From positions 2,656,001 through 2,720,000 of the forward strand of contig OZ219791.1 in NCBI GenBank assembly GCA_964291215.2: a stretch of 64,000 nucleotides of DNA. Reading direction: 5' to 3'. The stretch comes from Alphaproteobacteria bacterium. Its GTDB lineage: Bacteria > Pseudomonadota > Alphaproteobacteria > MPNO01 > UBA830. Positions 632-63,797 of this stretch are shown one piece after another; the stretch's first letter is position 1, and each line of letters opens with the position of its first letter. The translations under genes and the position numbers were made by a program. The notes under the pieces are model-generated. The model saw nothing but the letters and a program-made list of their open reading frames with translations, did no database searches and was not told where the DNA came from.

Positions 632-2472
632 CACGGCGATCCCACGCTAGGTTTGTTGGAAGGGTCGGTTTTGCTTGTTCAGGATGATTCGCATTTTCGC
701 TGGCTTTTTGTGAAGCGGCGTAGTATCCGTTGTCGTGGGGGCAGCGGATTTTTTTGAGACGACTCCGGAGGGTTTTGAGCTCCGGGATGTGGTTGTGCGC
801 CTTGCGCGGCCTGATGTCGCTGGAACCGTGTTGTTGACCGTATCCTGGTTTCAAGCAGTTTGCCGGTCGAGGTCTGCGTGTTTACCTGGCGCGGGCGGTG
901 GATTGGTGCTGCGGGCTGGCAGACGGGCGCCCTCAGCTGCGCACCCGTTGGATTGGCTGGCGCCGCGAGGAACAGTTCAGGCGGTTGCCGGGAACAACAC
1001 GAGGTTTGTTGTTCTTGGTGGTCGTTTCCGGGCCTTGCCTCGTTTGTGTTGTCGCGGATGGTGCGGCGGCGACTGGGAGGCTGCCGTTGCTTGTTGCGGA
1101 GTCGTTTGTCTTGCCGACGAAGTTCAGCGGCACCATGTACAAGGCGGCGAACTGGGAGTGCGTTGGCAGGAGCTATGCGCGCGCCAGCGGGCGCTATACC
1201 GACCGGGGAGGCGAAGGATCTTTACGTGTTTCCGCTGCGTCGCGACGTCGGCTGCGGGATCGTTCGCCGCTTCCTGTGGCGTGGGAGTTGCGGGGGCCGC
1301 AGAGCGACTTGTCGGCGCAGGAGTTGCGCTCGATTTATCAGCGGCGCTTTCCGGCGCGCGCAGGGGCACCGCATCGCCTCGGTGCTGTGCGTGATTTTGC
1401 TGGCTTGCGAACCGGCACGGTGCGGTTGCGGCGGCGCACTACGACGCAGAAGGAGCTGGAGCAGCATGGAAGAACAGGGACAAGCCGGTTTCCAAATCGA
1501 CCGTGCATCGGGTGCTGCAGAACACCGACCCGGGATGGATCGAGGATGCGGCGCGCAGCCGCGCCTGGAGGTCGGCAACGCGATTGCGGTCGACGGCAAG
1601 CGCATCCGCGGCCGCACCGGCGAGGATCATTACGAGACGGTCTCGCTGGCACGGGACCGGTATGCCGGTTTCGATCCTCAACTATCACGACGGGGAGATC
1701 GCTGCCGTCCACGCCGCGACGGCACCGGTTGCCGGCCGGCTGCTCACCCTCGACGCGCTCCACACCACCAGCGAGGCTGATCATCGAGACCCATCGCGCG
1801 GACTGATGGTCAAGGGCAACGCACCTTCGAGAGAGCATCAACTGGAAGACCGCCAGCGCTACAACGAAAAGCCCGCGCATGGCCGCCAGCGCACCATCTT
1901 CACCCCGCTGGCGAAGATGATCAACTAGTCAAGCAGATCTTCCGCGTCACCCGACGCGTCGAATTCAAGAAATCCGGAAAACGGACAACCGAATACGCCA
2001 TGACCTCGGCCGAACGCGCCTCGCCGCAACAGCTGCTCGCATGGAATCGCGGACACTGGGTAGTCGAGAGCCACCATCATGTCCGCGATGCCACCTTCCG
2101 CGAAGACGACTCCATGCTTCGAACGCGCCCGCAAACAACGCGATCACCCTCGCCGTCATCATCCGCAACAAACGCAAGCTGCCCAAACCCTTCAACAGCT
2201 TCGTCGACGCCCGCCACCACTATGCCGACAAGCGCAAGCAGGTCCTGCACGCAATCACAAGACCAGGCTGACCGCGCCTCTCTCCCCGACAGAAACTGCA
2301 AGCTTTCGAGCCCGGCAACCAAGGCCTCTCGCTCGCCCCGGATACGCCGACCAATCGCGCCCCGCGCCGCAACAGCGCGTCAGCAATCTCAAAATCGCAG
2401 CCTCGAACGCGTCGACCCGCGCCACGATCAGGACTCCGATTACATCACATCAACAAGCATGGGATCACCTTG
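632..2472 (+). mobile_element. Decayed ISAs1-family element encoding DUF4338 (DruA-like) plus ISAs1 transposase
   Basis: Imperfect TIRs CACGGCGATCCCACGCT / AGCATGGGATCACCTTG; 10-bp TSD ATCTGTCGCC at 622-631 and 2473-2482; DUF4338 motifs (GNNTRF, LVAESFV, GTMYKAANW, KDLYVFPL) then ISAs1 motifs (AVDGKRIRG, TLDALHT, VKGN, RGHWVVES, RDATFRED) across many frameshifts. Confidence 0.85.
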
Positions 2473-2608
2473 ATCTGTCGCCCCTTGCTCATGGACAGGT
2501 AGGCGGATAGCGTGGCCGTGCGTTCGATGCGGCTGTTCCGGGACGGCCTCGGCAAGGAAGGTTCCGCGCGCCCCGCCGCAGGTGCCGGCGCCGCGAAAGG
2601 AGAGACCG

Positions 2609-4161
2609 ATGACCCGCCGCCGTCTTCCGATCGGGATCCAGGACTTTCCGACGATCCGGAGCGAGGACTTCTACTATGTAGACAAGACGTCGCTCGTCCG
2701 CAAGCTGGTGGACGAGGGGCGTCACTATTTCCTGTCCCGTCCGCGCCGCTTCGGCAAGAGCCTGCTGCTCGACACGCTGGGATCGCTGTTTGCCTGTCAC
2801 GAACCGCTGTTCCGGGGACTGGACATCCACCCCCACTGGGACTGGTCGGCGCCGCGGTGCGGCTGAGCTTCGACGGGAAGTACAACGAACCCGGGGACAT
2901 CGAGCGCAACATCCTCAACCAGTTGGCGATCATCGAACATCGCGCCGGCCTCGACAAGGTACCGGCCGCGAGCACGGGTCCGGAGCGTTTGCAGAATGTC
3001 CTCTATTACCTGCGTTGCGCCACCGGGCGGCAGGTGGTGGTGCTGGTGGACGAGTACGACAAGCCGATCCTCGACATGCTCCACGATCCCGAGCTCGCGA
3101 CGGCCAATCGGGACTACCTGCGCGGCTTCTACGGTATCGTCAAGGGCAGCGCCGAACATGTCCGTTTCGTCTTCGTCACCGGCGTCAGCATGTTCTCCAA
3201 GGTCAGCCTGTTCTCGGGTCTCAACAATCTGAAGGACATCAGCCTCGACCCGCGCTTTGCCACGATCTGCGGCTACCGCGAGAAGGATCTGGACCGGGTG
3301 TTCGGCTCCGAACTGGCCGGGTTGGACCGCGAGGAGATTCGCACCTGGTACAACGGCTACCACTGGCGGGGCGGGGAACGGGTCTACAATCCCTACGATG
3401 TGCTCCTGCTGCTCGACAGCCGCGAGTTCCGCCCCTACTGGTTCGGGACCGGATCGCCGGACTTCCTGTTCCGGACGCTGATGGAGAAGTCGGTGAGCCC
3501 GATGGAACTGGAGGGGCGGCTGGCGGACATGTCTCTGGTCTCGAAGTTCGATGTCGGCGACATCGACATCGAGGCGCTGCTCTTCCAGACCGGCTACCTG
3601 ACCATCGCCGGGGAAGAGCAGGATGACTTCGACGCCCTCTACCGTCTGGACTATCCCAACCTCGAGGTCCGGATCAGCCTGAACCGCGGACTGCTCGCCT
3701 GGCTGGGCAAGAAGGGGGCCGAGCCGCTGGAGAGGGGGCGGGAACTCTGCGCGCTGCTGGAGGCGAACGACTTCGCGGGCTTCGGCGAGAAACTCCGCGC
3801 CTGGCTCGCGGGCATTCCCTACCAGTGGCATGCCAGGGGCGACCTGGCGCGCTACGAGGCCTGGTATGCGAGCCTTCTCTACATGTGCCTGCGCGCGGTG
3901 GACCTCGGCGTGGAGGAGGCCTCGCATCGCGGCCGTGCGGACATGGTGGTGCGTCTCGGCGGGCAGGTCTTCGTGCTGGAGTTCAAGATGGCCGACGGCG
4001 AGGAGGACGGCGCCGCCGCGCTGGATGCGGCGATGGCGCAGATGCGCGAGCGGGGCTATGCGGAGACCTGGCGCGACCACGACGGCCCGGTCCACCTGAT
4101 CGGCTTGGCCTGCGGGCGCGAGGCGCGCAACCTTCTCGATATCCGCGCCGAGGCCGCGTGA
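2609..4161 (+). pseudogene. AAA-ATPase-like plus C-terminal PD-(D/E)XK nuclease protein, frameshifted near 2850
   Basis: LPIGIQDF, YYVDKT, LSRPRRFGKS in one frame; LVDEYDKP, WYNGY, GRADM, VLEFK in another; RBS AAGGAG before ATG 2609. Confidence 0.85.
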
Positions 4162-5705: not shown

Positions 5706-5721
5706 ACGGAGGGGGAGGCCG

Positions 5722-17201: not shown

Positions 17202-17851
17202 GGTACTGTAACTTGATGTCTGGAAATTTGTCTGAGGTTTGCGCTTTGAGGCGTTTCACTGGGGGGCTAGCCCCCCAGTGAAACGCGGCGCCATCGTGCT
17301 ATCCCATGGGGTTGGAAAACCTTCATGGAGGAAGCGAATGGACCTGCGACACACTACGACGATCGGGACTGTTTTGGAACATCTGATCGCAAACGGAGCA
17401 ACGGATCTGGGGCGGGTCTTTGGCCAGCTCTTCGAGCTTGCGATGCAAATCGAGCGCGAGCAGTACTTGAAAGCGGGCCACCGGACGCCGGAGCGACAGG
17501 GCTATGCCAACGGCTACAAACGGATCGACACCCCTGTCGGGACTGTTACCGTTCAGGTGCCAAAGACGGCCGGTCACGGGGACGACCCCCCCAGTCGCTT
17601 GAACGCGGCCAGCGATCTTCTCGCGCCGTAGCCGAGATGTACATCAAGGGTGTTTCCACGCGGCAGGATGTAATGCGCGAGTTCGGGAGCCTGTCCTCTT
17701 CTCAGGTCAGCCGGGCCACCAGGTTGCTCGATGAAGAACTCACCGCCTGGCGCAACCGGCCCCTGATGAAATACCTGATCCTGGATGCGCGCTACGAAAA
17801 AGCCCGCCATGACGGCGTTGTGCGCGATGTTGCAGTGCTCTCTCCCTCGGC
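17202..17851 (+). mobile_element. IS256-family element, 5' partial copy (decayed)
   Basis: GYANGYK, AEMYIKGVSTR, SLSSSQVS, LDARYEK; near-identical to the copy starting 650 bp downstream. Confidence 0.85.
17251..17286. repeat. Perfect 36-bp palindrome in IS256 left end (second copy at 17901-17936)
   Basis: GCGTTTCACTGGGGGG-CTAG-CCCCCCAGTGAAACGC. Confidence 0.95.
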
Positions 17852-19068
17852 GGTACTGTAACTTGATGTCTGGAAATTTGTCTGAGGTTTGCGCTTTGAG
17901 GCGTTTCACTGGGGGGCTAGCCCCCCAGTGAAACGCGGCGCCATCGTGCTATCCCATGGAGCTGTAAACCTTCATGGAGGAAGCGAATGGACCTGCGACA
18001 CACTACGACGATCGAGGCCGTTTTGGAACATCTGATCGCAAACGGAGCAACGGATCCGGGGCGGGTCTTTGGCCAGCTCTTCGAGCTTGCGATGCAAATC
18101 GAGCGCGAGCAGCACTTGAAAGCGGGCCACCGGACACCGGAACGACAGGGCTATGCCAACGGCTACAAGCGGATCGACACCCCCACTGTTACCGTTCAGG
18201 TACCAAAGACGGCCGGTCACGGGGACGACCCCCCAGTCGCTTGAACGCGGCCAGCGATCTTCTCGCGCCGTAGCCGAGATGTACATCAAGGGTGTTTCCA
18301 CACGGCAGGATGTAATGCGCGAGTTCGGGAGCCTGTCCTCTTCTCAGGTCAGCCGGGCCACCAGGTTGCTCGACGAAGAACTCGCCGCGCAACCGGCCCC
18401 TGATGAAATACCTGGATGCGCGTTATGGAAAAGCCCGCCATGACGGCGTTGTGCGCGATGTTGCAGTGCTCTCGGCCATCGGAACAGGGGCTGCAGGCGC
18501 GTTCCGGGGCTCTCTGTGGCGCTCTCCGAGGCCGAGGTCCATTGGAGGGCCTTTCTGGAAAGCTTGCAAGCCCGTGGCCTGCATGGTACGACCTTCATCG
18601 TCTCGGATGCCGGGCTGAAAGCGGCGCGGTGCCAGCGCTGCCAATTCCACCTGGCACAAAACGCCGTGCACCGAACAACGACATCAGGAAACGTATCGGA
18701 AAACAGCTCGGAGCCATGCGTCCTCACTCCAAACCGCCGAGGCTGAACCGGGCGCCCTCGTGGCCAGCTATCGCGACAAGCGTCCAGGTTTCCTGGCTGG
18801 AAAACAATGCGGGGCTCGCTGTCTTCACCTTGCCCGATGCTTACCGCAAACGTATGTGAACCTCGAACGGCATCGAGCGACCGATCCAGCAAGAACTCAA
18901 GCGGCGCACCTCCAAAGTCAGGGTCTTTCCGAACCTCGCCTCGTTGGAGCGCCTCTCAACCGCGGTCCTCATCGACGAAAAATGGGAAACCGAAACCAAG
19001 ATCAAATGGGAACAGCTCGATGACTGACAGCTTCACGACAATTTCCAGACAATCAGGTTGCGTAATCC
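17852..19068 (+). mobile_element. IS256-family element with decayed transposase
   Basis: TIRs GGTACTGTAACTTGATGTCTGGAAATT / AATTTCCAGACAATCAGGTTGCGTAATCC; motifs EAEVHWRAFL, SDAGLK, QRCQFH, ERPIQQELKRR; many frameshifts. Confidence 0.88.
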
Positions 19069-19115
19069 TGCCGGGCGGACCAACAACCCAACCGGCGAAC
19101 GAAGAAAGGCAAGGC

Positions 19116-20324
19116 ATGATGATGATCCGGCGCATACTCTTGGCTCTTGCCCTGGTCCTGCAACTCTCGCCTGCCGTTGCGCAGCAGCCGGACAGTGCCG
19201 CGCAGGTCGACGCCCTTCGTGCGCGCGCCGAGCAGGGTCATGCTGACGCACAGGGCCAACTCGGCTTTTTTTACCAGTTTGGCGTGGGCGTGCCGCAGGA
19301 CTATGCAGAGGCCGTCCGGTGGTATCGCAAGGCGGCGGAGCAGGGTGACGCTAATGCACAGGGCATTCTCGGCGGTATGTACCGCCTAGGCCGGGGCGTG
19401 CCGCGGGACGATGCGGAGGCCGCCCGATGGTATCGCAAGCTGGCGGAGCAGGGTGACGCCAAGGTACAGAACATTCTCGGCATCATGTACGCCGAAGGCC
19501 AAGGTGTACCGCAGGACGATGCGGAGGCTGTCCGGTGGTTTCGCAAGGCGGCGGAGCAGGGGTACGCCCGGGCACAGAACATTCTCGGCGTCATGTACTC
19601 CGAAGGCCGAGGCGTGCCGCAGGACTATGCGGAGGCCGTCCGGTGGTTTCGCAAGGCTGCGGAGCAGGGTAACGCCGATGCACAGAACATTCTCGGCATC
19701 ATGTACGCCGAAGGCCAAGACGTACCGCAGGACTATGCGGAGGCTGTCCGGTGGTTTCGCAAGGCCGCCGAGCAGGGTGACAACTGGGCACAGCACTTTC
19801 TCGGCGTCATGTACTCCGAAGGCCGAGGCGTGCCGCAGGACTATGCGGAGGCCGTCCGGTGGTATCGCAAGGCCGCCGAGCAGGGTGACAACAGGGCACA
19901 GTACAGTCTCGGCCGCATGCATGAATTCGGGCGGGGCGTCGCCCGCGATCCGGTACGGGCACACATGTGGTACAATCTCGCTGGCGCCAAAGCCTCTGGC
20001 AAAGCTGTCCGGGAACCTGCCGTAGACGGTCGGAACCGGGTGGCGCAGCGATTGACGGCGGCGCAACTTCGCGAGGCGCAACGGCTGGCGCGGGCGTGGC
20101 GGCCGGGTAGGGACGAGGGCCTGCTGGCGGAGCGGCGGGAGCGGGTCGAGTCGGTGCAACTCGCCCTTGCCCGGCTTGGCTACGACCCCGGCCCGGCCGA
20201 CGGGATAGCCGGACCCAAAACTCGCGCTGCAATCCGTGCCTTTCAGGCCGCGGCCGGCCTGCCGGTCGACGGAAAACTGTCCGAGGCATTGCGCAAGGCG
20301 CTCCGGTCCGTGTCCGTTAATTGA
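19116..20324 (+). CDS. Secreted Sel1-like repeat protein with C-terminal peptidoglycan-binding domain
   Basis: Signal peptide; seven 36-aa SLR units (AQ..LG.MY..G.GVPQD..EA.RW.RKAAEQG); PG_binding_1 motif (LGYDPGPADG..GPKTRAAIRAFQ). Confidence 0.92.
   Translation: MMMIRRILLALALVLQLSPAVAQQPDSAAQVDALRARAEQGHADAQGQLGFFYQFGVGVPQDYAEAVRWYRKAAEQGDANAQGILGGMYRLGRGVPRDDAEAARWYRKLAEQGDAKVQNILGIMYAEGQGVPQDDAEAVRWFRKAAEQGYARAQNILGVMYSEGRGVPQDYAEAVRWFRKAAEQGNADAQNILGIMYAEGQDVPQDYAEAVRWFRKAAEQGDNWAQHFLGVMYSEGRGVPQDYAEAVRWYRKAAEQGDNRAQYSLGRMHEFGRGVARDPVRAHMWYNLAGAKASGKAVREPAVDGRNRVAQRLTAAQLREAQRLARAWRPGRDEGLLAERRERVESVQLALARLGYDPGPADGIAGPKTRAAIRAFQAAAGLPVDGKLSEALRKALRSVSVN
19242..19997 (+). repeat. 108-bp tandem coding repeats (SLR units)
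   Basis: Recurrent GTGCCGCAGGACTATGCGGAGGCCGTCCGGTGGT-like sequence at 108-bp spacing. Confidence 0.9.
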
Positions 20325-39450: not shown

Positions 39451-39699
39451 ATTTCGGGGGGCCGGGCCTGTTCTTCGCTGTCCGTTCCGGACACAAATGC
39501 AATATAGGCTTTTCTTCTTATATAACCGCCTGTAATTGTTATATTTTTTCTAGCCTTTACATATGCTCGTAAGCAGATCGAAAGCGAGATGGGATCAATA
39601 TCAGCGTGTTTCAGCGCGGTGTCGTCGATGAAAACTACCTATCGCTCGACAGCGGGTAGCGCGCGTCATAACTCCGTCGGGCTGTAGAGCATCTGACGA

Positions 39700-40082
39700 G
39701 GGTTGGCGGTCGCTGGGCCTCTGGCGCTCAACCGCCATGCCCTGCCGAAGGAGTTCTGTCGGCGCATGGGTTGGTTCAAGTCCGACGGTGACCTCAAGGG
39801 CATGATGGCCTGGGTCGTCATGCTGGCCATGCACCGCGATGCCGTCATCGCCCTGTCACCACCAAGGATGAAGCAGGGCAGGCTCAAGCCCCTCGTCTTC
39901 GGAGCCGACACCGATCCCCGCCCCGATCACCATCGACGAAGTTTGCCCGCTCGACTTTCGCCCCGCCGCGCGTGGGGGCCATGAGGGGAAGCTCTGGAAC
40001 GAGTTCGTCGTCCGCTACCACTATCCCGGATATGGCACTACCGGTGCGCAACTCGCCGAACGCGATGCAGGGCCGGGTGCTG
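39700..40082 (+). pseudogene. DUF4338 (DruA-like) N-terminal fragment
   Basis: LNRHAL.KEFCRRMGWFKSDGDLK.MMA...MLAMHRD..IAL.PP; then LWNEF...YHY.GY....GAQL; cut by IS21 remnant. Confidence 0.7.
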
Positions 40083-40580
40083 TGGTTGATCGGTTCTTCA
40101 TCGGCGGTCCGGCCGGCCGGCAGGTCCCGCAGCGTCGCGCGCACGGCCTCGAGCGCCCTGGATCGGTGCGCATTGGCCCAACCGACCGCCTCGGCGGCAA
40201 AGCGCCGACAGGCATCGAGGTTCCAGAAGTCCGCCGCGCAGCGCAGCGCCAAGGCGTCCGCGGTCCGGTACTCGAGGTGGCCGTGCGGTCCCTCGACCGA
40301 GCCTCTCTCATGCGCCACGCCGCGGTTGTTGCGCGTGACCTCCATGCCGCAATGCGTGCCCAGTACCCGGTCACGTCCTCGGCCGCGTCCTTGCTCAGAT
40401 TGCGGAACACCGCCACAGGCTGTCGGTGCGGTGTGGCGGGGCGCGCCGCCGAGGTGCCGCAGCACATCCTGCAGACCCCCGGCCAGCGCCGTGAAGCTCT
40501 CGCCGCCGAGCGCCACCCGGGCATGGATGTCGCCCGACCGGGCGAGGCGATGTGTCCGGCGCGCCATCGCACCCGCCTGA
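40083..40580 (-). pseudogene. IS21-family IstA transposase fragment
   Basis: GGESFTAL..GLQ..L..LGGAP, TRNNRGVAHE.GSVEGPHGHL, LRDLP.GRT.D. Confidence 0.8.
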
Positions 40581-41480: not shown

Positions 41481-41610
41481 TACGTGGATTTTTCCTTCTG
41501 CTTCTGTCTTTTTGTCGATATTCTGCGTATCCGTCGCGGCCATTTCAGAGAGTTATTTGATTTGAGAAGGCCGTGATTCAGCATTTTCATGAGGGACTGG
41601 CGGCGGCTGA

Positions 41611-43767
41611 CTAGGTCTGCCGAGTAATGACAATTACGACGTGACGTCGCGGGTCTGAATGTATTGCAAGGGTTGCCGCTGTCCGGCCCGGAAGCCGACT
41701 TGATGGCCAAGAACGGCGCTGGGTCGCGCCACATGACCTGGTGTCCGGGCTCGGGTTGCGATTCTGGTACCCGCCGAGATGGGCCACCAGGCGGACGGCA
41801 TCCCCGAGGCGGTCGGCATGCGCTTCTCGGCGGCGTAGTCGCGCAGGAAGCTCAGCTCCTGATCGGTGAACATCAGCTCGGGCTCACAGTCGGGAACCTG
41901 CCGCAGGGTCATGACCATGATGCGCGATGACGGCGTTGATGGCGATGGCCCGCTGCAGTCGTTCTGCGGTCCGGAACAGCAGGAACTCGGTGCGACAGCC
42001 TGACTTGAGGATGCGGAAGAAGTCTTCGACCTTCCACCTCTGGAGGTAGAACCATCCTGGCGGCGTCCTCGGCGCTGCGCACCTTGAGCGTGGTGAGCAG
42101 GAACCACTGCACCGGGTTCTCGGGAGGATCGGTTTCGATGATGTGGACACCGGAAAGGGCGAGCGGCCTTCGAGGGTGGAGGGCAAGGCGGCGGAACCGC
42201 AGTGCGTACTGAGCCACGCGTTTGCGTCGGGCGCCTTCGTTCGGCTCGCCTTCGGACGCTCGCCGTCGACGGTGATGCCGCCTGCGCTCAAGGTTGCAAA
42301 CAGCGCGCCCCTTGCCGAGAACCCGGTCATGCAGGAGCCCGACCCGTGGGTTGATGACAGCTCGAAGAAGTCCGCTTCCCGATCACGGACCGAGATCACC
42401 CGCGTCGTGACGTCGCGAACCGCTTCGTCGATGTCCTTGAAGCCTTCCGCGCCGGCTCTTCAACCGCTCCTCGGCCGCCGGGGAGCGCTGCTTCACCGCA
42501 TCGAACCCCAGAACCTCGAGCGGCAACCCCGTCTCGCTCACCGCCAGCGTCGCATGCAGGCCCCGGGCCGACGAGGAGGTCTGGTTCTTGCCGATGACCT
42601 GCAGACCTTCGCATCCGCCGGGAGAAATCGAGGTCGCTGGATTGCCAGCACGGTCGTTTGGCCCCGGATCGTGCGCTCCCGATGCGGAGCAAGAATGTTC
42701 GCCACCGCACTCTACACCGGCTTCTCGATCAAGCGGCAGAAAGCACTGATCGCCGTGTTGTCGGCATCCGTGCTCGCGTGAATCCGGGACAGGAGGCCAG
42801 AAGAGCCGCACTCTTCACCAGGCGTGCCGACAGTCGCTTGTCACCCGCCCCTCCGAATTCGTTCACCGCCCACACCGCACCATCCAGACCGTCTCCGGGC
42901 CCCGGCAGGAGCGACCGGACCCACCCCCAGCTTGCGTCGCCGATCCAGACCGCGCATCCATTGACCGTCTTGGCAGCGCGATGGTGACGATCCTGACGAC
43001 CCTTCGTCCGCCCCGCACACACGAAGTTCGCAGCCCGCAGGCAGGTCCCGGCCCTCGTCCGCACAGGTTTCCACCACCAAGGGACGGAATCCATACCGGG
43101 CCTCGAAGTCCCTCGGCAGACGCCGGAGAAGCCGCCCCGGAACATGGCTCCCGGCACCGCACCCGAAGCAGAAACCGACTCGGACAGACCACCCGATGAT
43201 CCCGTCGCCGGGACGGCGCCATCCAGCGGTCGCGGGCCCGTCAACGCCGCCGCCGAGATCCCGACCGCACCCAGGATCCCGTGCTCCGAAGTCACAAGAT
43301 AGCGCACCTGACAGCCGGCAAACGTCGTCATGCCATGAGGATGCTCGCGCGCCGTGTTCCATACCGTTCGCTCCGAAACCTCGGTCACCACCGACAACCG
43401 CACCTGCGCAATCCCTGACAGACGGGACGGCACCCCGACAGGCACTTCTCCGTCAAGAAGACGCGGAGAGTTGTCCACGGCAGCAGCCTGCGCCGCCGGA
43501 AGCCGGATCTCACGACGATGCCAACGTGGTCAGGGCCTTCAGACAACTCGACAGCTGCCAACGCCCGGCCGCGTCCCGGAACGAAAACTCTTCGCATATG
43601 GCTCGCAGCCCGACGGCCAGAGTGCTGCTCCTGCGACAGGATGGCAGCAACGCGCGCCCCGTCCTCGCGTAGAGTGTGAAGAATGCTGGATCGTGCCATC
43701 ATGGCTGCAAGCTGGCGCAGACCGAGCGGCACGTCCAGACCTAATTTTCATGACATGGCAGGACTAG
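41611..43767 (-). mobile_element. Decayed IS4 (Tn5/IS50-like) element encoding a DUF4338-transposase fusion
   Basis: Imperfect TIRs CTAGTCCTGCCATGTCATGAAAA / CTAGGTCTGCCGAGTAATGACAA; DUF4338 motifs (GCQVRYLV, DFEARYG.RP.VVET, GTCLRAANF..GRT.GR) followed by GDKRL..RL, DREAD, WFLLTT, RW.VEDFFRILKSGC. Confidence 0.85.
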
Positions 43768-43921
43768 GTCGTGAAGCCCCGAGATCGGTTGCGTCAGAAT
43801 TTGCAATTTTTGGCAAGCATCGAAGTGGAGCTTTTCATAGGCTGTAAGGCGAATATAGTTCTGCGACTTATTTGAGTTATACAGAATTGATATAATTTTA
43901 CTGTTACCCTGTTCGATTAAC

Positions 43922-44272: not shown

Positions 44273-46729
44273 TTGTTCTCGCCTCACGTGGCGGTGTATT
44301 CATTGGTGACCGTCGGTTCTCGACTGAGCCGCGCTCGCCAGTCCCGAATCGTTGCAAGCTCGATCCCCGCTGTGGCGGCGGCGGCCCGGTCGAGGGCATC
44401 GCGCAGGTCGTCGTCCGCCGCGTTCTTCCAGGGTTCGACCGGCATACCCTTGGTCTGCTCGAACGCTTCGGCAAGCGCAACTGCGCTTGATGTCCTGAAG
44501 TCCGGAACGGGCAGCGTGGCAAGCTCGGCCTGCGAAAACGACGGGTTGGTCAACTTCGTTCCTCGCCTCATCAGGAAGCCGAGCGCACCGAGTGTGCTGC
44601 TGCACCAGGCACACAGCGCCCTCGTCCCTTCTGTGCTTGTATCCTGGATGGGAACCCACATCGACCCCAGAGCCGGCCGGCCGCTGAAAATCGCGAGAAG
44701 CCGGCCGGAAGTCGTGTTGAACTTCGCCGCCAGCAGGATGTATCCGGCCTGTTGCCGGTAGCGGGCGGCGAGCGCCGGCTTCTTGTCCGTCACCGCCTGT
44801 TCCGGAACCGCCTCCATCGTCGTCCGCAGATCCTTCGAGCGTCCCCAGAACACGCGGTAGCCGTCGCCATCATTCTCAACCGGACGAAACGCGTCCCGAA
44901 TCCGCCGCCCCGCCGGACCCAGCCGATATTGGCTTCCCAGCGGCACGAGCGATGTCTCCCGTTCGAGACGCATGGCGGCGCCAACCAGCTCCGGATCCAG
45001 AAACTGGCAGGGCCGCCAGTCTCCCGCTCGGACCTGCATCTCCGGCTGTTCGTAAACGGTAAACCACTCGCTCACAGCACCCATTTCGATGGCTTCTGCA
45101 GCCTTGATCGCTTCCTCGGGCGTTGCGGGCATGGTGCGCAGCGCAACGAAGCGGGTAGGCTGAGCCTTGCCGGCGCCGTCTTCGTTCCGACGACGGCATA
45201 TCAGCAGCGATTCATGAATCGCGGTGTTCTCGCTGAAGTTGGGTCGGCGCGGATCGTGGCTGGTCACGACGGTTTCGATCTGGAAGCGCTCGGCAAGAAA
45301 GCGGCGTTCCGCCGTCCCGCTTGGGCCAGTGCAAGCTGTGGTGGGAATAACCATGGCAAGCAGGCCAGAGGCGTTCCGGACGAGCATATCCGCAAGGGGA
45401 GTGAAAAATGTCCGGATGCTGTTCGCCGTCACGGCGGCGCCCGCAAGCGGGTCTCTCTGCGCAAGCCGCGTCTGCATGTCGAGTTGGTAGCGCTGCATGG
45501 CCTTGCGACCGTCGGCGCCGTACTTCCTGCTTCGGTTCTCGTTCGCGGTGAACGGCGCGTTCATGATCACAGCGTCGAGGTTCCGCAGCGGGAACCGGAT
45601 CTCCGTACTTTCGTTGACTTGGGCGGCATCCAGGCCTTCGAGCGACCGGGGCGGCGCGATCAAGGACGCAAGGCTTGCCCGGGAGTCTTCCGTCGCCGTC
45701 AGGATCTCCAGCGATCCCGCCTTCGGCGGTCCTTCCGCCTGCGGACCATGAGGCATGGTGACCAGATTCATGCGCGCATAATCGACGGTCGGGGCACCGA
45801 GGGTCATGTTGCACGCGGCCAACTGGATTCCGTGCTGGTTGATGTCGAGACCGCAGAGAACATCCTCCACGAGATGCCTGTGCAGGGCGTTTCGATCCGC
45901 GTCGCTCATCTCCCCGGATTCGGAGACCCGGGCCTTGATGGTCTGGAAGGCGGCCATGAGCAGCGTTCCGGTCCCGCACGCAGGATCGATGAGCCGGAGT
46001 TTCCCCACGGCTTGCGGATCGGACCAGTCGATCAGATCCCGGGCAAGACGCGCCAGCATGACCGCCGACAGGTTGTTGGTATAGAACGCCCCGTCGCTCT
46101 TCGCGGAGCCGAGGATGCGATGGTAGAGCGGTCCCGCGTGGTCGTAGCCGAGATCGCTGAGCGAGTCGGCGACGCGATTGGCGCACTCGGCAAGCATGCG
46201 GATGGTGTCGTCGATGGCCTTGCTTTCGCGCAAGGCGGCCAGCACCGCGAGCGCGGGGCGGAACACCGGCGCATAGTCCTTTTCGAGGATCGCCTCCCAC
46301 GCGACTTCAAGGACCTCTCCGGGATGCTTCGCCCCCGAAACCTTGTCAAGCCGCACGATGGTCTTCATCTCCGGTTCGTCGCGCAGCCGGCGCTGCAGCA
46401 GGCAGGCGTTGCAGAGCATGAGCGCGGCGACCGTGCAGACCCCCTTCGCGCCGCCGTCGTCTTCGGGCACGAGGTCAAGCGCTGCCGCGAGCGGTTCCTC
46501 CATCGCTTCGTCCTGAAGCACGGTGCTGGCGTGACGGACTGCGTCGGTAATCTCATCCGCGACGACCTGCCCGGGCTTGCCGAGCCCCGACGCCGCGGCG
46601 ACATGTGCGTAAATCCCCTGCTCGGCCTCCTTCAGATCAAGTTCACGCTGGATGTACTCTCCTTCTGTCTCTCGAACCTGGCCGCCGGCCGATTCCCCCG
46701 GTGCCGTCGCGCCGGACTGTTCGTAAACC

Positions 46730-48195
46730 GTATCTACTCACCCCTAGTTGGGTTCCGATTGGTCGTGGTGCTCGTTGATGATGTCTGCGGCTTTTCCGTC
46801 GAGGGCGATCTGGGTGGCGACGTGATGATTGTAGCCGAGTGTGGCCATGGAGGTGAGGTAGCTTGAGCCCCATGCTTTTGCGTGGAGCGGAAGCATCCGG
46901 ACACCTTGACCTTTGCCATCCTGATCTTCTGTTCTCCGGCATTGTTGGTGAAGCTGACGTCGGGGTTGTCTGTGAAGCGCAGGTTTTCGTGTTTCACGAG
47001 ACGTTCGTGCAGGTTGTGCGCGTTTGCTATGCGTTTTCCTTTCGGCGGGATGTCGGGCAGTTCCCTGGCGCCCTGATGGTGCGGTAGCGCCCGGCCTCGT
47101 TCAGAGTCCTGGATGCGCTCTTGTTGACCTTGTGGCAGACCTCGCGGAGCAGGCTCTTCATCAGTCGCGCGGCAGCCTCGACGACGAAGGTCAGTTCGCG
47201 CAGCAGGTGGCTGCCGCACAACTGGTGGCTACACTGCCATGTACGAGGCCCAGGACGCCCTTGTAGCACGGGCCGATCTCTTGCCCGCGCTTGCGGTGCG
47301 GGAACTTGCACGTCCCGACGACATGGAGCCACTTGCTGTTGATCCGAAATCGTCGACATCGGGCGTTGCAGGAGGTGCGCCACGGCGGCCTCCTCCCATG
47401 ACGCATCGTGAAAGCATGGCCGAGGCCTCGGAGAGCTTGATATCGCCTGCACGAGCGCGACGGCGCAGGGACAGCATCCGGGCGACCAGCAGGTTGATGA
47501 CGAGGGCCTGGATGCCGTACTGCACGGGATGTTGTCGGGGAACCGGGCCTTGCACTTCGGGCATTCCTCGGCGTCGACGCGGCGCGACCTCGAACACGAT
47601 GTCGTGCGGCGCTCGACGGGGTCGGCGCCGCAGGCGTCGCAGGCCGCGACCGTCTCCTCGACGATGGCAGGTTGTCGCCCATCTGCCGGTTCGGCTTCGG
47701 GCCCTTGCTCCCGGCACGCTCTTGTCCGTCTGTGACGGCGGCAGACCGGAGTTCCGGCTCGTGCGTGGTCTTCTCCAGAAGGACGACGATGAGGATGTCG
47801 AGGATCACGGCCTCTTCCGCCACCTTGCCGGCAGCGCCGCGGTCCTGGCCGCTTCGAACTCCTCGCGCGCCGCCCGTCGCCATCACCCGGCCTCGACGGT
47901 CATGATCGTTGCGAGCATCGCCTGGCGCTCGCCCGGCGGCATCTTCCGGTACTCCGCCTTGCGCTTCATCAGCGCGCCGCCTCCGAGATGCGTTTCCACA
48001 TACAGATCATGCGGAGGCTGGAGCCCCGGAAGCAGCTGGCACAGCCCGCTCGTCGCCTTCGATCCAAAGTAGCCCACTGGCGGTCCCCGTCGTTCTTGAT
48101 GACCACCACTAAACGAATCGGGTGTCAAATCTCCACGAAAACCCGTTCGTTACTCTACCCCGACATCAAGCCGGAACCAGGGGGTGAGCAGTTAC
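46730..48195 (-). mobile_element. IS66-family element (decayed TnpC) with Dam-like methyltransferase cargo
   Basis: TIRs GTAACTGCTCACCCC / GTATCTACTCACCCC; 8-bp TSD CGTAAACC at 46722-46729 and 48196-48203; TnpC motifs HQLCGSHLLREL, FTNNAGEQKIRMAKVK, SGCFRS. Confidence 0.92.
47883..48077 (-). pseudogene. Dam/D12-class DNA adenine methyltransferase remnant inside IS66
   Basis: GYFGSK...PPHDLYVETHLGGGA (motif X/I-like), joined by an internal deletion to a short C-terminus; no DPPY-type motif left. Confidence 0.75.
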
Positions 48196-50276
48196 CGTAA
48201 ACCTTAATGAAATTGGCAGGAGACTCCGCAAGGCGCCCGTCGTGGGCCTGGAGCGCTCGCAGCACCCGCCCGACCGTCCTGTAGCCCTCCGTGCCTCGCT
48301 CAAGCGCGGCCACGACATCCTGGTCCGGTGCGACGACAACCGGAATGATGATGTAGCCGAAGCGCTTCCCCGGCGCCTTTCGCATCACCCGTCCGACCGC
48401 CTGCACGACATCGACCTGGCTGTCCCGGGGGTCAAGGAAGGCAACGGCGTCGAGCGACGGCACATCCACGCCTTCGGTAAAGAGCTTGACGTTGCACACC
48501 ACCCGGCATTCCCCGTCCGCGTCGGCATGGGCCAGCGTGCGAAGTTCCTGATTGCGTTGCAGCGCGCTGGACGATGCATCGAGGTGCTGCGCGACAACTT
48601 TCATCGCCCGTCCGGCCTGCATTCGCCGGGTGGTGGCCCTCAGGACCTCGCTCTCCATGAGCGCTTCTGCATACCACTTCGAACGCGCAATGCTGTTGGC
48701 AAACGCCATCGTGCGCGGGAGCTTGCCCGGCTGCTCCAGCGCCTTGCCTTCGGTAACGCCATTCAAGGCGAGCGAGACGCCAAGCACGCGCGTCATGTCG
48801 TTGGTGGTCGGCGCCTGCTTGCCCTCCGCCGACTGGTCGATCCCTTCGAGGCGTCGCCGCAAGCCGGGCGTCACGCTCCCCTCGCCGACGCCGAGGACAA
48901 TCACCCGATAGTCGGAGAGCATGTCGTGATTTACGGCCTTGGCGAACGGCAGCCGATGAAGCTCCGGCCCGTAGACTTCGTAGTCACCCATGTCGACAAC
49001 GGCGATCCCCTGTTCGGCGAGCCTGCCCCTGGAGCGTTCGGTGTAGAGCCGCGGCGTGGCCGTCATGTAGAGGCGCTTGTGAGACTTCAGCCGCGCGTCG
49101 TCGTGAAACTCCTGGAAATCGACCTTGCGGCCATTGCCGGACTTGCGTCCGTCGAGAACCGCTCCGGTCGTGCGGTGTGCCTCGTCGGCGATGGCGAGAT
49201 CGAATGCCGGTGCGCCATGCAGCGCCTGAGCCTCGGTCACTCGCCCCAACGAATGGTAGGTGCAGAACACGACACGGGTCGCGCCGTTGCCGACGAGCGA
49301 CTGCGCGATCTCGCCGGGATCCGTCGTCACCGGGCATTCAAGCTCGGAGATCCGGATATCCTCGTTCTCGTTGCGTCCACCGGCCGTCGGGTCCGAATAC
49401 ACCACGATGCATGCAAGCTTGCGCGTCGTCTGACGCAGCCACTCCCGCCGCGCCTGCGAAACCAGCGCGATGGTCGGGGCGGCAAACAGGATCCGTTGTC
49501 CGTCCTCGACGATTTGCTCGGCGATGCGAAGGGACGTGAATGTCTTGCCCGTACCGCACGCCATGATGAGGCGGCCCCGGTCGTGGTTGGCAAGCCCGGT
49601 TGCCATGTCCTCTATCGCGTCGGACTGAAGCGGCCATGGCGCCTGCACCGGGCGCCCGGCATCCCGCTCCTCGACCTGAACGTCGAGATACTGTCTGAAG
49701 TCGATTTGCCTGGCTTCGGGATGGGCGTTCTGGATCGCACGCTCCGCGTTCGGCCCCCATCTGCAAGTCGCCACGACCCACCGCAGGCGGAAGACCGGCT
49801 GTTGCGAGCCGCCGAGAAACTTGTCGATCCCGCTTTTGCCGAGCACATGCCGGTCGTCGTAGCACTTGCACTGAACAGCGACCCACTCGCCGGAGGAGCG
49901 TCGCGCCACCAGATCGATCCCGATGTCGCGCCCGTCAAGTCCGGTCAATGTCTCGCGCTCGGGCCACTCCGCCCAGCGCCAGATTCCGTCGATCTCGAAC
50001 TCCGGTTCCTGATACGCGATCCGCACGAACAACTGTTCGAACCAGCGTCCCTTCTCGGCCTCATCGCGGCTTTCCTTGCGAATGCGATCGAGAATGGCAC
50101 GTGCGCTCGGCCTTCCTGCGAGGTCCAGATTCATCTGACCTTCCGTCACGGCCTGGAGCATCGCGACTCCTCGACCGCGGCGGTTCGGATGAGCGCATAC
50201 GATCGGATCTCGCATGCCAGCGCCGGTCCAATGGGTTGCTCTTCCCGCTCGCGAGCAAAGGCATCGTTTGCGATAC

Positions 50277-50702
50277 TCATCCGGCTGTCCACGGATCGAC
50301 GACCTGGATGTCGATGTCCTTGAAGTCCCGGACGTTGCGCGTCGCCACCGCCATATTCCGGGACCGGGCGATGGCCGCGATCTGGCAGTCTGCCGGCGCG
50401 ATGGGCCGGCCCGCCGAACGGCGCCGCGCCGCGATGTCGGCATATTCCCGCGCCGCTGCGCTGTCGAAGGGAAGGATGCGGCCTTCGAAGGCTTCGCCCA
50501 GCATGCGCTCAATGTCCGCCGTCAGGGTCTCCCGGCGTCGTCCCGCTGCTAAGATCGCCGCGCCATAGCGCAGTTCCGCCTCGCCGATAGCGGAGAAGAA
50601 TAGGTCGTGCAGCGAATGGGCGGCGGCCCAGCCTCCTACTGCCGCATCGGGTGATCGGCGGACCAACTCGGATACTACATTCGTGTCGACCAGTACGGCC
50701 AT
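50277..50702 (-). CDS. vapC: VapC/FitB PIN-domain toxin
   Basis: VDTNVVSE, AELRYG, DCQIAAIA, ATRNVRDF. Confidence 0.93.
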   Translation of the reverse strand: MAVLVDTNVVSELVRRSPDAAVGGWAAAHSLHDLFFSAIGEAELRYGAAILAAGRRRETLTADIERMLGEAFEGRILPFDSAAAREYADIAARRRSAGRPIAPADCQIAAIARSRNMAVATRNVRDFKDIDIQVVDPWTAG

Positions 50703-55016: not shown

Positions 55017-56324
55017 CAGGGTGATCTTACGCTAAATTCTGTTTGATTTTTCAAGGCAGTACCTGGGTTTTGCGGGGGCGCGGGTTGGTGCGGAAGATTT
55101 TTTACAGTTTTCGCTGGCTTTCCTGCACTGGAGTGTCATGGTGCGGGGATGTCGGTTCACAAGCATGTCGCGTCCTGTCCGATTCACGTCGCAGCTCCGG
55201 AAGGGTCTGTCCGAGGTCGAGGTTCGCGAAGCCTGAGGAGCATCCGCTGCGGGATGCGTTGATGGACGACTATCTCGGGTTTCGCCGTCTGGCGGGGCTG
55301 CGCCATATTGCGTTCTTCAGGGGGCAGTGGTCTGGCCGGGGCCTTCAAAGTGCCGCGACCGGTGGCTGGAAGCCGGAGCAGCAGTGGCTTGATCTGATTG
55401 CGAACAACACGCGACTGCTTGCGGCGCCGGGAACGTTTCCGAACCTCGCCTTGTTCTTTCTTGCGACGCGGTGGCTGGCCGACGACTGGGCCTGCGGCCA
55501 CCAGGTGGTTGTGGCGGAGACGTTCTGCGATCCGGAGCGTTTTGCGGGCACAAGGCGGCGGGCTGGCGTGCCAGGGGGTTTGCCCGCGCCAACGGGCGCT
55601 GCACCAATGTTCGCGGCAAGGTGATCACCCTCGACGCGCTGCACACGACGCCGGCGACGCTGATCACCCGGCGCCGCGGCGCAGACCACGTCTTCCCGGT
55701 CAAGCGCAATGCGTCCGAAACCTTTGACATCCTCGACGGCATCGACCAGGAGACGGATGCCAGCGGCCGCTTCAAGCAGGAGTTCGACAAGGCCCGCGGA
55801 CGCCTCGAGCAGCGCTCGAGGCGTGTCCTGACGCCGCTCGAGGGCCTGATCAACTACCCCGGCAGAAGGAGCGCCAGCGGCGCAGCGAGCGGCAACGACT
55901 GCACCGGTACATCATCACCTCGCTCGATGCGCAACACGCGTCGCCAGAGGAACTGCTGCGGCCGCGGGCCGTGAAAAACATGAACCACCGAGACTGCGTC
56001 TTCGGCGAGGACGCCTGCCTGACCCGCAAACCGCGCCAGCCTCGACAACATCGCGCTCGCGGTGATCTTCGCCAACCGACGCGAGAGCCTCGCCGAAACA
56101 CGGCTGCGGCTCGACCGCCGGGAAGCCGTCGCAGCCCTGAGCGCCAATGGTGTCCGGCCGATTCCCGGACGCCGCCCACAACCCGCCCACATCCCGAAAA
56201 CAACCCGCCGATAACGCCGCCGGCGACGACCGCGGACGGCCCCGAAGCCAGAAAACCCGGCACGCCGTGAAACCTCCGGACAACAGAAGACAACAAAAAT
56301 TGAATGCAGCGTGGGAAACACCTG
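55017..56324 (+). mobile_element. Heavily deleted ISAs1-family element with DUF4338
   Basis: CAGGG...CCTG termini; DDYLGFRR, IANNTR, FPNLA, VAETFCDP, ITLDALHT, VKRN, RDCVFGED; left end matches 288-412; no TSD seen. Confidence 0.8.
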
Positions 56325-59580: not shown

Positions 59581-59584
59581 CGGC

Positions 59585-60133: not shown

Positions 60134-60139
60134 CCGGCA

Positions 60140-61456
60140 ATGGCGGGCGTCGAGGTCGGCATCGCGTCAGTCCTGGTCATCCTGGTTCTTATCTACACCG
60201 GTATTCACGTTGCCGTCGCGCTCGGCCTGGTGTCGTTCGTCGGCGTATGGATTTACCGGGATTCGATTGATGTCGCGATCAGCCTCCTGACCGCGGCTAC
60301 CCATGACACCATCGCCCACGCCGTTTTCGCGAACATTCCACTGTTTGCCCTGATGGGCATTGTCTCGAGCGAGATCGGCCTCGGCAGCGACGTCTACAGG
60401 GTCGCCGACCAGATCTTCCGCCGGGTGCGCGGCGGGCTCGGCATGGCGACCGTTGCGGCCAATGCACTGTTCGCCTCGATCACCGGATCGTCGATCGCGT
60501 CGGCGTCGGTGTTTACCCGCATTGCCGTCCCCGAGATGCGGCGTTTCGGCTACACGCGCCAGTTCTCGGTCGGGGTGGTGGCCGGCAGCTCCGTGCTCGG
60601 CATGCTCATCCCGCCGTCGTCGATGCTGATCATCTACGCTATCGTCGCCGAGCAGTCGGTCGGGCACATGTTCATTGCCGGCTTCATCCCCGGCGTGCTG
60701 CTCGCGGCAGCCTTCATCCTCGGCATCTTCCTGATGACGCGCCTCACGCCGAACTTCATCGGCGGCAACGATCCGGCGGTGATCGCGTCAGAGACCCCGG
60801 ATTTCGGCGTATGGGACATCGCTCGCCTTCTGCTTCCGGTGCTGTTTCTCGTTGTTCTCGTTCTCGGCGGAATCTATACGGGATGGTTTTCTCCAGAGGA
60901 AGCGGGCGCTGCCGGCTCGGCCGGTGCACTTGCGATTGGCGTCCTCAAGCGGCGCCTCACATGGCACGGGTTCTGGCGTATCCTCGTCGAGACCGGCCAG
61001 ATCACGGCCGCCATCCTCTTCCTTATCATCTCGGCGTCGATGTACAGTCGGATGCTGGGCGTCGCCGCGCTTCCGACGCTGTTCAGCGACTGGCTGGCGA
61101 GCATGAATTTCGGGATGGCGGAGCTGATGGTCATCTATGTCGTGCTGATGGTCCTTCTCGGCACGATCATCGAGACCGCCTCGATCATCCTCATCGTCGT
61201 GCCGCTGTTTCTCAGCTCGGTCGAAGCGCTCGGCGGAAACATCGTGTGGTTCGGCATCGTCACCGTGATCGGTGCCGAGATCGGCTTGCTCACGCCGCCG
61301 CTCGGCATCTCGTGCTTCACGATCAAGAGCACGATCCGTGACCAGTCGATCACGCTCGCCCACATATTCACCGGCGCGTTCCCATTCGCCTTCGTGATGC
61401 TGCTGGTGCTGATCCTGATCATCGCCTTTCCGCCGCTGAGCCTCGCCCTCCTGTAG
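60140..61456 (+). CDS. dctM: TRAP transporter large permease
   Basis: IPLF.LMG, GSSIA, LGMLIPPS, TPPLG. Confidence 0.93.
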   Translation: MAGVEVGIASVLVILVLIYTGIHVAVALGLVSFVGVWIYRDSIDVAISLLTAATHDTIAHAVFANIPLFALMGIVSSEIGLGSDVYRVADQIFRRVRGGLGMATVAANALFASITGSSIASASVFTRIAVPEMRRFGYTRQFSVGVVAGSSVLGMLIPPSSMLIIYAIVAEQSVGHMFIAGFIPGVLLAAAFILGIFLMTRLTPNFIGGNDPAVIASETPDFGVWDIARLLLPVLFLVVLVLGGIYTGWFSPEEAGAAGSAGALAIGVLKRRLTWHGFWRILVETGQITAAILFLIISASMYSRMLGVAALPTLFSDWLASMNFGMAELMVIYVVLMVLLGTIIETASIILIVVPLFLSSVEALGGNIVWFGIVTVIGAEIGLLTPPLGISCFTIKSTIRDQSITLAHIFTGAFPFAFVMLLVLILIIAFPPLSLALL

Positions 61457-61622
61457 GGCAGCGGGTCTTTCAACTTGACACTATTAAAATCCGTTGAATT
61501 CTGCATATCGTGTTCCCGCATTTTTCTGTGATGCTCGACGAAGTAGAGGAGGAGTTGGTGTCCTTGCCAGAGTTTCTCGGTTTCTGGCAGGGGTTGGCGC
61601 TTTCTGGGGATGAAGCCTGCCA

Positions 61623-63797
61623 GTAAACGTTCGTTCGTGCGGTGAGGTGTTGTTGTTTTCGTCCGTTTGATCGGCTTTTGTCAGGGAGTTCCAGCGTCAT
61701 CCGGAGCGGTTTCGTGCACCGGGATGCGCGGTGAGGGGCACTGGCGCCATGCGGTGTTTCCCGCATCGGTTGCGGTTTTGTCCCGGTGCTGCGGAGGAGG
61801 AGCTGAGCGCCATCCCGTGCCGGTTGCAGGGTTCTGAGGGTCCGCTCCTTGCGGGGCGGGCCAGATGTCCTTCTTCGGCTTCTGTCATGTCGGTCGTGGC
61901 GGCCGCAGGTTGTTCCGACGCGGATCCGGCAGACGCCGCGGCGCGGGACCAGGATCTCGCAGGGCACGGGCGTGGTGTTGCAGCGCGCGGTCCATGCGGC
62001 GGTCGAGAAGCAGCGGCTCGCCGCATGGTAGCGCATCTGCGGCGCCGCCAGGCGCGTGTATCCGAGGTCGTGTCAGCGGGCGGGGCTCGTCGAGGGTCTT
62101 AGGGGCGGCGGTGTGATTAGCTTCGGGGGCTGGCGGCGGCAGAAGGCGCGGGCGATGGGGTCCGCTCCGTGATCGTCGCAGCACTGCGCGACCATGAAGT
62201 CGCGCCCTCGACCTCACGGCGGCGCTGCGAATCTCCGCCGCCTCTCCGGGCTCACGGCAACCAGGGCGACAGATCGCCGGGCCGCCGTTCTCCGCGCAGG
62301 CGCCAGCGCAGAACGTCGAGGCCGCTCCTCGCGACCGTGCCGTGTACATGACAGCCGTCCATGCTGTCGGAACCGAAGCCGGGCTTCCGCCCGGGCCCCT
62401 GACAGCCCTTTCCCCGAAATTGTTGTCCATGGTCGACAAACACGCGATGGTTGAGCGCAGCGGCCTGCCTTCCGGCGCCGCTTTCGGAAGCCTCGGCGCT
62501 TCCGCAAACAGCGACCGCAGTCTCCAGCGCCGCCTGCGCGGCCTCGAACGCCGCCGGAAGCAAGGCAGTCGAGCCGTGTTCAGGCGGCAGATCTCCGCGA
62601 TCGATCCATTCCCACCCCTCCAGCTGCGGCCGGCGCAGTCCGGAAAGTCGCGCCGACAATGCGCCCGACAACAGCACAGGATGATGAAGGGCCACAGGCG
62701 CGCCAGCTTCTTGCAGGCGCCGCAGCGGTCGCAGACATGGGGGCCGTCCGCGAACAGCTTCGCCGCGACCTCGGCGCTGCGCGAGGGAGAGAACCGCGTC
62801 ACGGCTGACCGATGTCTGGAGCCAGGCGCGACTTCCGGACCTCCCTCGGGGCCTGGATGCATCGGCATGGCGCAAACCCCGGTGCGCGAGGATCGCGTCC
62901 CGAAGCGGCTCGAACAGGGGCACAGCATCTGGCTCGCTGGCCAGCGTTCCCGGCGAAAGCCCCTGGACGCGGCGCGCATGCACGCGCTCGTGCAGCACAT
63001 GCGTCCACACCCGAAGGCGGTGCCGGGAAACAGCCGCCACCGGTGAACCGGGGCAGTCACAGCCCCGGCGGACAATCCGCCGCTTTTGATCTCGATGATC
63101 CTGGTGCGAACCGTTGGCAACGCAGCACGAGCAGGCGTCCTCCGCCACCTCCAGCCGCCCTCCACCTCCTCGAGCGCCGGCGGCGGCCAGGAGTGCCGTG
63201 CTGCTGGCCGCGCTTCGATGACGCCCGCTGCCTCTTCTCGCTTTTGCGCCTGTACGACCTGTTCGAACGAAGCTTGTCGTTCTCCGCCCCGACCCTTCAG
63301 AACCCTCATCGCGGTCTTCAGGCTGGCATTCTCCATGCGCAGCGACACCACCGTCGACCGCTTCCGCGCGCCGGCCTCGGCAAGAAGCTGGCCCGGACGC
63401 GCAACCTCCTGCTTCAGCGCAAGAGACTGCTTCGCCGTCCGCCGAATTTCCCTGACCTCCGCACGGGCAGCTGCCAGCTTCTCGCGGTTGCTCTCGAAAA
63501 TCGCCTTCAGGGAATTCGCGCGGCCCCTCCACTTCCTGCAAGCGCAGCTCCTCACAGCGCCCCTCCGCCGCCTCGGCTCGAATACGCTTGCGATCGTACA
63601 GGGACTTCCAGGTGGCCGAATCACGACACGACGACTGCGGCATGTCGCCAGCGGCGTCCGCACCCGATGATGACACGAAATCCTCGATGCACATGACCAT
63701 CTGATGGCACCGCCAAAAAAATTCACCAGCCCCCTTCTCCGAATCACCAAAACAAACCTCGGCGCAGATCGTCATCACCGCATGAACAAACGCTTAC
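61623..63797 (-). mobile_element. Decayed IS66-family element carrying TnpC plus a downstream DUF4338 gene
   Basis: TIRs GTAAGCGTTTGTTCATGCGGTGA / GTAAACGTTCGTTCGTGCGGTGA; TnpC (coiled coil, CDR..A.KK, AH.RRDF, MDNNFGERAVRGP); DUF4338 at about 61800-62210 (GRDF, LGYTRL...QMRY, FSTAAW, TTPV.CE, IRVGTT.GR, KKDIW). Confidence 0.85.

Follow-up and report, generated by a model that had tools for sequence, protein, structure and literature searches.

DUF4338 remnants in decayed insertion sequences

The stretch of DNA analyzed here (64 kb, hereafter the window) comes from a genome of 6.15 Mb with 64 per cent G+C, which is assembled in two contigs and is 99 per cent complete. An earlier reading of the window from its letters only (hereafter the sequence-only reading) had noted DUF4338 coding remnants at five places. 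Using intact proteins of the same genome as tblastn queries, we found DUF4338 homology at all five, and all five remnants are confirmed as genuine. Four of them are enclosed by inverted repeats, in two ISAs1 elements, one IS4 element, and one IS66 element, and here the tblastn matches and the element ends (derived from alignments of copies) agree with the earlier placement of the remnants inside terminal inverted repeats (TIRs). Target duplications are perfect in two of these four elements (one ISAs1 element and the IS4 element). An automated repeat search reported no TIRs for four of five elements of the genome submitted to it, and the copy alignments served to set the ends. The window copies are dead remnants. 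Pfam profile PF14236, now called DruA and previously DUF4338, matches the genome at 41 places, 34 of them above the cut-off. None of the 41 lies within the window, where the copies are too degraded to be recognized by Pfam.

Specifically, the first ISAs1-family element (632..2472, plus strand) is decayed, has TIRs that agree at 14 of 18 positions, is flanked on both sides by a perfect 10-bp target duplication (ATCTGTCGCC), and matches the transposase profile NF033564 at 1904-2128. Its DUF4338 remnant (747..1250, plus strand; a putative Mom-like GNAT, see below), detected by tblastn with the intact 586-aa and 670-aa frames, corresponds to the N-terminal part of the fused ISAs1 transposase in intact relatives. 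The second ISAs1-family element (55017..56324, plus strand), also decayed, has TIRs read from the sequence that agree at 11 of 17 positions and a single internal deletion of 612 bp; no target duplication was found at its ends. It contains a DUF4338 remnant of the HYLG type (55220..55567, plus strand), which across 137 aa is 68 per cent identical to the intact frame of 670 aa.

The decayed IS4/Tn5-type element (41617..43761, minus strand) matches NF033590 and is flanked by the 8-bp target duplication GACTAGGT. The sequence-only reading had recognized this element correctly and had set its ends at 41611 and 43767, thereby including six bases of the duplication on each side. The target of this IS4 family is NNCTAGNN, and the 8-bp duplications are centred on CTAG in all five copies whose flanks were read. 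A remnant of an N-terminal helical domain and an EHPHG-type DUF4338 was located in the element by tblastn (43048..43699, minus strand; queries P0001, P0004, and the genome's own 793-aa frame), the DUF4338 match proper being at 43048-43511 (minus strand). In intact relatives, this type is fused to the IS4 transposase.

The decayed IS66-family element (61623..63797, minus strand) has GTAA-type TIRs that agree at 20 of 24 positions and a tnpC remnant at about 62255-63528; no target duplication was found there. Downstream of tnpC and within the right TIR lies a remnant of a DUF4338 gene (61840..62253, minus strand), identified by tblastn and blastn with intact elements. Intact relatives bear out the arrangements described from the window, namely an N-terminal fusion in the IS4 type and a separate gene after tnpC in the IS66 type. 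The fifth remnant (39697..40087, plus strand; tblastn E 1e-30 to 1e-25) is an orphan, with no transposase found within 1.5 kb, and it spans the N-terminal helical domain and the start of the GNAT domain. Its homology to DUF4338 holds, and its status as a separate lineage does not: with 55 per cent identity to intact IS66-type copies, it is a fragment of an IS66-type gene.

Association of DUF4338 with transposases across the genome

By tblastn, DUF4338 is present at about 206 places in the genome, and at 157 of these a same-strand IS4, ISAs1, or IS66 transposase lies within 1.5 kb, where it would be expected; the same criterion picked out 79 of 2,000 random places. The DUF4338 lineages are each associated with a particular IS family (28/30 and 23/30 for the two IS4 types, 76/95 for ISAs1, and 27/51 for IS66). 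Conversely, the domain accompanies 59 of 69 ISAs1, 44 of 54 IS4, and 21 of 37 IS66 transposase places of at least 600 bases, counts that lean high because the transposase queries were drawn from DUF4338-bearing elements. We regard most copies in the genome as dead, since only 12 of 142 profile matches cover at least 80 per cent of the domain in one frame. Open frames elsewhere in the genome encode DUF4338 together with an IS4/Tn5-type transposase (793 codons), together with ISAs1 transposases (670 and 586 codons), or as a stand-alone protein.

As a separate observation, the IS copies are distinguished from each other by numerous short deletions, whose lengths peak at 5–7 bases (58, 68, and 60 distinct events, versus 31, 15, and 22 at 2–4 bases). 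Deletions are common to copies at different sites, 440 of 820 deletion pairs are incompatible with one tree (mosaic sharing), and microhomology of at least three bases accompanies 48 of 199 deletions, versus 14 expected; no sequence motif stood out at the deletions. An assembly artefact is ruled out as their cause, as the same deletions occur beside undeleted forms in contigs of three public runs from one study (the source sample may be among them). A link between DUF4338 and the deletions is likewise ruled out, as repeats without DUF4338 are also deleted. A candidate explanation is that non-autonomous copies are mobilized in trans and exchange sequence with each other.

Intact elements in other genomes

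A scan of GTDB yielded at least 593 confirmed stretches, the best 80 of which corresponded to 77 loci, with a few genomes contributing many of them; a single 2.4-Mb chromosome supplies 17 of the 77, most with both ends. The right GTAA-type end was found at 55 of the 77 loci by a simple pattern that misses some. At 48 loci both ends enclose tnpC and DUF4338, and 37 of these 48 have a target duplication matching at no fewer than seven of eight positions, so the module lies within the IS ends in intact copies too, as the sequence-only reading had supposed. These elements show the features of IS66 (TnpC, GTAA ends, and an 8-bp duplication), and ORF reading of the intact ones reveals a single long frame that fills the space between the left end and the DUF4338 gene, apparently leaving no room for tnpA/tnpB. 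Among 18 elements chosen for inspection, the tnpC stop overlaps the DUF4338 start in all 13 that were readable. DUF4338 is shown to be fused or translationally coupled to the transposase, inside the element ends. Prediction of a TnpC-DUF4338 complex scored 0.01 and gave no answer. The domain is also better conserved than TnpC: across the same 66 unsaturated pairs, which are not independent, simple counting with the last 350 codons of TnpC gave a median dN of 0.116 for DUF4338 versus 0.274 for TnpC and a dN/dS of 0.23 versus 0.38. DUF4338 is thereby shown to be under purifying selection.

The other families are equally recognizable. ISAs1 elements have the ISAs1 transposase, TIRs, and a duplication of 9–10 bp, and the IS4 (IS50/Tn5-like) elements have Tnp_DNA_bind, DDE, and Tn5 dimerisation domains, TIRs, and a duplication. 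The fusion is present in the 120 IS4 relatives listed, of which 119 have PF14236. At E <=0.001, searches with the IS4 fusion and with the stand-alone gene returned 2267 and 2732 relatives, respectively.

When the phylum was sampled evenly, DUF4338 matched in 20 of the 300 other genomes. Among the 27 loci examined there, for which 50 of the 61 long frames were scanned, a transposase accompanies 15 (six ISAs1, three IS66, three ISKra4, two IS4, and one IS1634), four encode proteins of at least 700 aa in which no transposase was seen, and eight are unassigned. DUF4338 is therefore carried by five IS families: IS4, ISAs1, IS66, ISKra4, and IS1634. At the three IS66 loci of this sample the domain is upstream, and the one IS1634 locus has neither a fusion nor the helical domain. 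In plasmid records the module is present in 2 of 72,556 and in phage records in 0 of 50,697, collections in which the hosts may be under-sampled.

The sequence-only reading had proposed a comparison of DUF4338 and transposase phylogenies. In a 39-row unrooted tree, one supported split sets off the IS4 fusions, another the IS66-downstream genes, and a third the ISKra4 genes; the ISAs1 rows cluster with two rows of unassigned loci, and the two IS66 arrangements do not group together. For two of the groups, the members had been collected by their similarity to a single query, and their clustering is therefore partly built in. The lineages do track IS families, and the number of captures is not fixed by this tree.

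Fold of DUF4338 and its kinship to Mom

In an AF2 model (pLDDT 81), the stand-alone DUF4338 protein has a GNAT fold. Foldseek ranked phage Mu Mom (8bv8) first, at E 3.8e-5, with SpeG close behind at E 4.6e-5, and VIA also placed 8bv8 first (Z 11.3, rmsd 4.3, 168 aligned residues), with the next GNAT at Z 11.2. As judged from the model, Mom and ordinary acetyltransferases are therefore tied in structural similarity.

The kinship to Mom, as estimated from profiles, is more specific in sequence than in structure. A single-sequence comparison with Mom reached 8 bits only, and a Mom alignment was therefore built from Mom and 102 of 150 search matches, selected by length. Against this 103-row alignment, the DUF4338 profile scored a probability of 97 per cent (E 6e-11, 169 columns). 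PHROG 1384, a Mom-like family, was matched at E 6e-6 and 7.5e-5, and in the two nearest Atlas clusters, with PF14236 set aside, Mom appears on 11 and 42 per cent of members (scores 0.89 and 0.87), which we take as a lead only. Other searches returned less: PF25680 (Mom) had no match in the source genome (a search without a positive control), the best DUF4338 relative scored 25.9 bits against PF25680, under the cut-off of 27.1, a PDB sequence search with the DUF4338 alignment gave nothing meaningful, and a scan of viral contigs for Mom found near-identical copies only. Phage Mu Mom is the nearest characterised relative of DUF4338, and the module is related to the Mom family and not a member of it.

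The key residues of Mom given in portions of PMC13219725 and PMC7261163 are H58, Y59, R111, S124, D149, R151, and Y159. The equivalents of H58, R111, and S124 are invariant in 121 of 121 IS66-type and 120 of 120 IS4-type sequences (the R111 match, one column off in the automatic alignment, was placed by motif), and the D149 position is D or E in 98/121 and 111/120, respectively. The IS66 type retains Y59 (119/121), R151 (115/121), and Y159 (120/121), and in the IS4 fusions these positions are occupied by P, G, and L; R151 itself is present in only 51 of 103 Mom relatives. For the ISAs1 type, active-site residues were seen in two copies of the source genome only. The helix-turn-helix (HTH) insertion of Mom (residues 175-209), described in sections of PMC13219725 as essential, its deletion abolishing activity, is absent from DUF4338, in which the profile alignment shows a 26-residue gap and a short Gly/Arg loop instead. 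The likeness to Mom seen from the window is thus upheld as to the GNAT fold and the nearest relative, and a simple equivalence with Mom is doubtful because this required insertion is absent and the IS4 fusions replace Y59, R151, and Y159.

An additional N-terminal helical domain of 80 residues (pLDDT 91 for the predicted fold) is found in the IS66, ISKra4, and IS4 types (115 of 120 IS4 fusions) and is absent from the ISAs1 fusions. It resembles winged helices weakly (Z <=5.0; Foldseek E >=0.5).

Possible functions of the module

Extracts of PMC13219725 describe Mom as a Gly-tRNA-dependent modifier of adenine in dsDNA and warn that the substrates of GNATs are not readable from structure. Tentatively, we favour the view that DUF4338 is a built-in, conserved part of these IS elements and a putative enzyme that transfers acyl or aminoacyl groups onto DNA bases at or near the element. 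By analogy with Mom, the donor would be a charged tRNA. Contact with DNA would be made through the predicted winged-helix-like N-terminal domain in the IS66, ISKra4, and IS4 types and through the fused transposase in the ISAs1 type, each replacing the HTH insertion of Mom. Being expressed together with the transposase, the enzyme would leave its mark only while transposition takes place. Such a mark would probably serve to protect the element, the intermediate after excision, or the fresh insertion against nucleases of the host; alternatively, the ends may be marked to control their re-use. The near absence of the module from plasmids and phages weakens the idea of protection during transfer between cells. 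A further-reaching proposal, which we consider possible and rather doubtful, is that at least five IS families independently adopted a putative tRNA-dependent DNA acylase that writes a new base modification at transposition, a self-marking whose chemistry may differ between lineages such as the IS4 and IS66 types. On that proposal, the enzyme would be hidden in databases under the defence label DruA.

The same fusion and translational coupling to the transposase would also suit an active acyltransferase that acts on protein (the element's own transposase or a host factor) and tunes transposition. Acylation of proteins is common among GNATs, which equal Mom in the fold-search scores, the DNA-binding insertion of Mom is missing, and a part of PMC10853773 takes DUF4338 in DndF fusions as a protein-targeting effector. 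We nevertheless regard protein acylation as unlikely, given that the sequence kinship is specifically to Mom and that most types have a helical domain resembling, if weakly, DNA-binding domains. Moreover, the transposase partners are structurally unrelated, which makes it difficult to imagine a protein target common to them. That DUF4338 assists the transpososome without catalysis, as a structural or DNA-binding component, is less probable. This would explain the loss of three Mom residues in the IS4 fusions, and, with apparently no room for tnpA/tnpB in these IS66 elements, DUF4338 could replace accessory proteins, yet the invariant residues are those lining the Mom active site. Furthermore, ISAs1 and IS4 relatives ordinarily function without accessory genes.

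We see still less reason to postulate a GNAT toxin or growth brake (acting, e.g., on charged tRNA) that would make the element addictive or time its transposition. Charged tRNA is used by Mom and, according to segments of PMC13219725, is acted on by the TacT/AtaT toxins, and nearly all copies in the source genome are broken, as the 12 of 142 near-complete matches attest. However, the same decay affects repeats without DUF4338, intact elements have no space for an antitoxin gene, and one 2.4-Mb chromosome holds 17 mostly two-ended loci. Least probable of all, in our judgement, is a host-defence passenger (Druantia DruA) hitchhiking on IS elements, to which the Pfam name DruA, the weak PADLOC DruA scores, and the four long non-IS proteins among the 27 phylum-sample loci would point. 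Passages of PMC13316683 state that Druantia type I requires druABCDE. The PADLOC DruA matches cover only 95-126 of 407 positions (best E 1e-5 to 1e-6), searches of the source genome for DruB, DruC, and DruD (two of the three run without a positive control) found no match, and a Pfam scan of 56 of the 324 listed window frames found no Druantia-type genes. The neighbours of DUF4338 are transposases inside TIRs, with no druBCD operon found, and DUF4338 lineages track IS families. The module is not Druantia, in agreement with the sequence-only reading.

If the domain does modify DNA, as we favour, simple insertion sequences bring their own DNA-marking enzyme, and a family with more than 2,000 relatives per search would be a source of new base chemistry, testable by the recent Mom assay. 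Even if it does not, the genes that Pfam labels 'DruA' in environmental genomes often belong to IS elements, and they should be left out of counts of anti-phage defence.

Comparison with known systems

Mom-like proteins were reportedly linked to diverse bacterial transposases by Iyer, Tahiliani, Rao, and Aravind in 2009, with DNA modification by transposons proposed, so the putative function of the module was probably predicted before. A full-text literature search, with the Aravind-lab papers of 2009 and 2013 outside its reach, found no paper on DUF4338 inside IS elements and no experimental test of that proposal. The novelty of our results is limited by that 2009 prediction and by the appearance of DUF4338 as a GNAT in print. 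The latter statement is made in an excerpt of PMC10853773, and one of PMC7824862 refers to Iyer 2009 and 2013 on the subject of phage and bacterial Mom systems.

With Druantia type I DruA and the DndF-fused DUF4338 (an extract of PMC10853773), the module shares the PF14236 domain; it differs from Druantia type I in that no DruB-D partners were found, its PADLOC DruA match is weak, and it is seated inside IS ends. With phage Mu Mom (PF25680, PDB 8BV8), it shares the predicted GNAT fold, carriage by a transposing element, and the motifs HY, R, S, D/E, and GxxYxAxNW/F, whose order and spacing agree. Unlike Mom, to which it has about 17 per cent identity, it has no HTH insertion and has an extra N-terminal helical domain or transposase fusion, and its IS4 type lacks both tyrosines. 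With ISAs1, IS4 (IS50/Tn5-like), and IS66, the elements share transposase profiles, TIRs, and duplications of 9-10, 8, and 8 bp, respectively. The IS66 type described here differs from classical IS66 in having one long tnpC and apparently no room for tnpA/tnpB, and all three lineages differ from ordinary ISAs1, IS4, and IS66 elements in carrying the GNAT module.

Possible mobility and target sites of the IS elements

Among the contigs of the public run X3, one has an empty site (window 621-2478) for the ISAs1 element at window 632-2472, and in another the right end of the element (2472) is joined to its left end (632) with 9 bases in between, a joint that may represent either a circle junction or a tandem copy. 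In two other genomes, the transposases of ISAs1-DUF4338 elements (L170:1399-3214 and L172:129-1935) have a frame break at the same place, at about model position 151, which could be a programmed frameshift.

The window's IS4 family (window 41609-43769 and four other copies) inserts at NNCTAGNN. One insertion of this family lies inside a palindrome of the type that ends Mutator-type transposase remnants (window 17251-17286 and 17901-17936).

Short deletions of 5-7 bases are abundant in IS copies across the genome, including those at window 632-2472, 41617-43761, 55017-56324 and 61623-63797. They are shared in a mosaic manner between IS copies whose perfect target duplications differ, are enriched in short microhomology, recur in independent contig sets from three public runs of one study, which may include the source sample, and are likewise found in repeats without DUF4338.

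Other features of the window

Positions 1-620 hold nested fragments of additional IS66 and ISAs1 ends, which resemble the sequence at 63540-63797 and at either end of 55017-56324. At 2609-4161, a member of a multi-copy family of AAA-ATPase/PD-(D/E)XK nuclease genes is frameshifted near 2855. The protein encoded at 18807-20324 has Sel1 repeats (108 bases each at the DNA level) and a peptidoglycan-binding domain. The IS4 element adjoins a restriction-modification-like locus on the reverse strand (44284-50512), in which two long frames encode a Mrr-type nuclease, a helicase and an N6 methylase.

Long DUF4338 proteins

At four loci from other genomes of the phylum (L173, L174, L175 and L184), where no transposase was seen, the DUF4338 domain is split and resides in proteins of 700 to over 1100 amino acids. 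These long proteins are perhaps DndF-type fusions like those described in PMC10853773.
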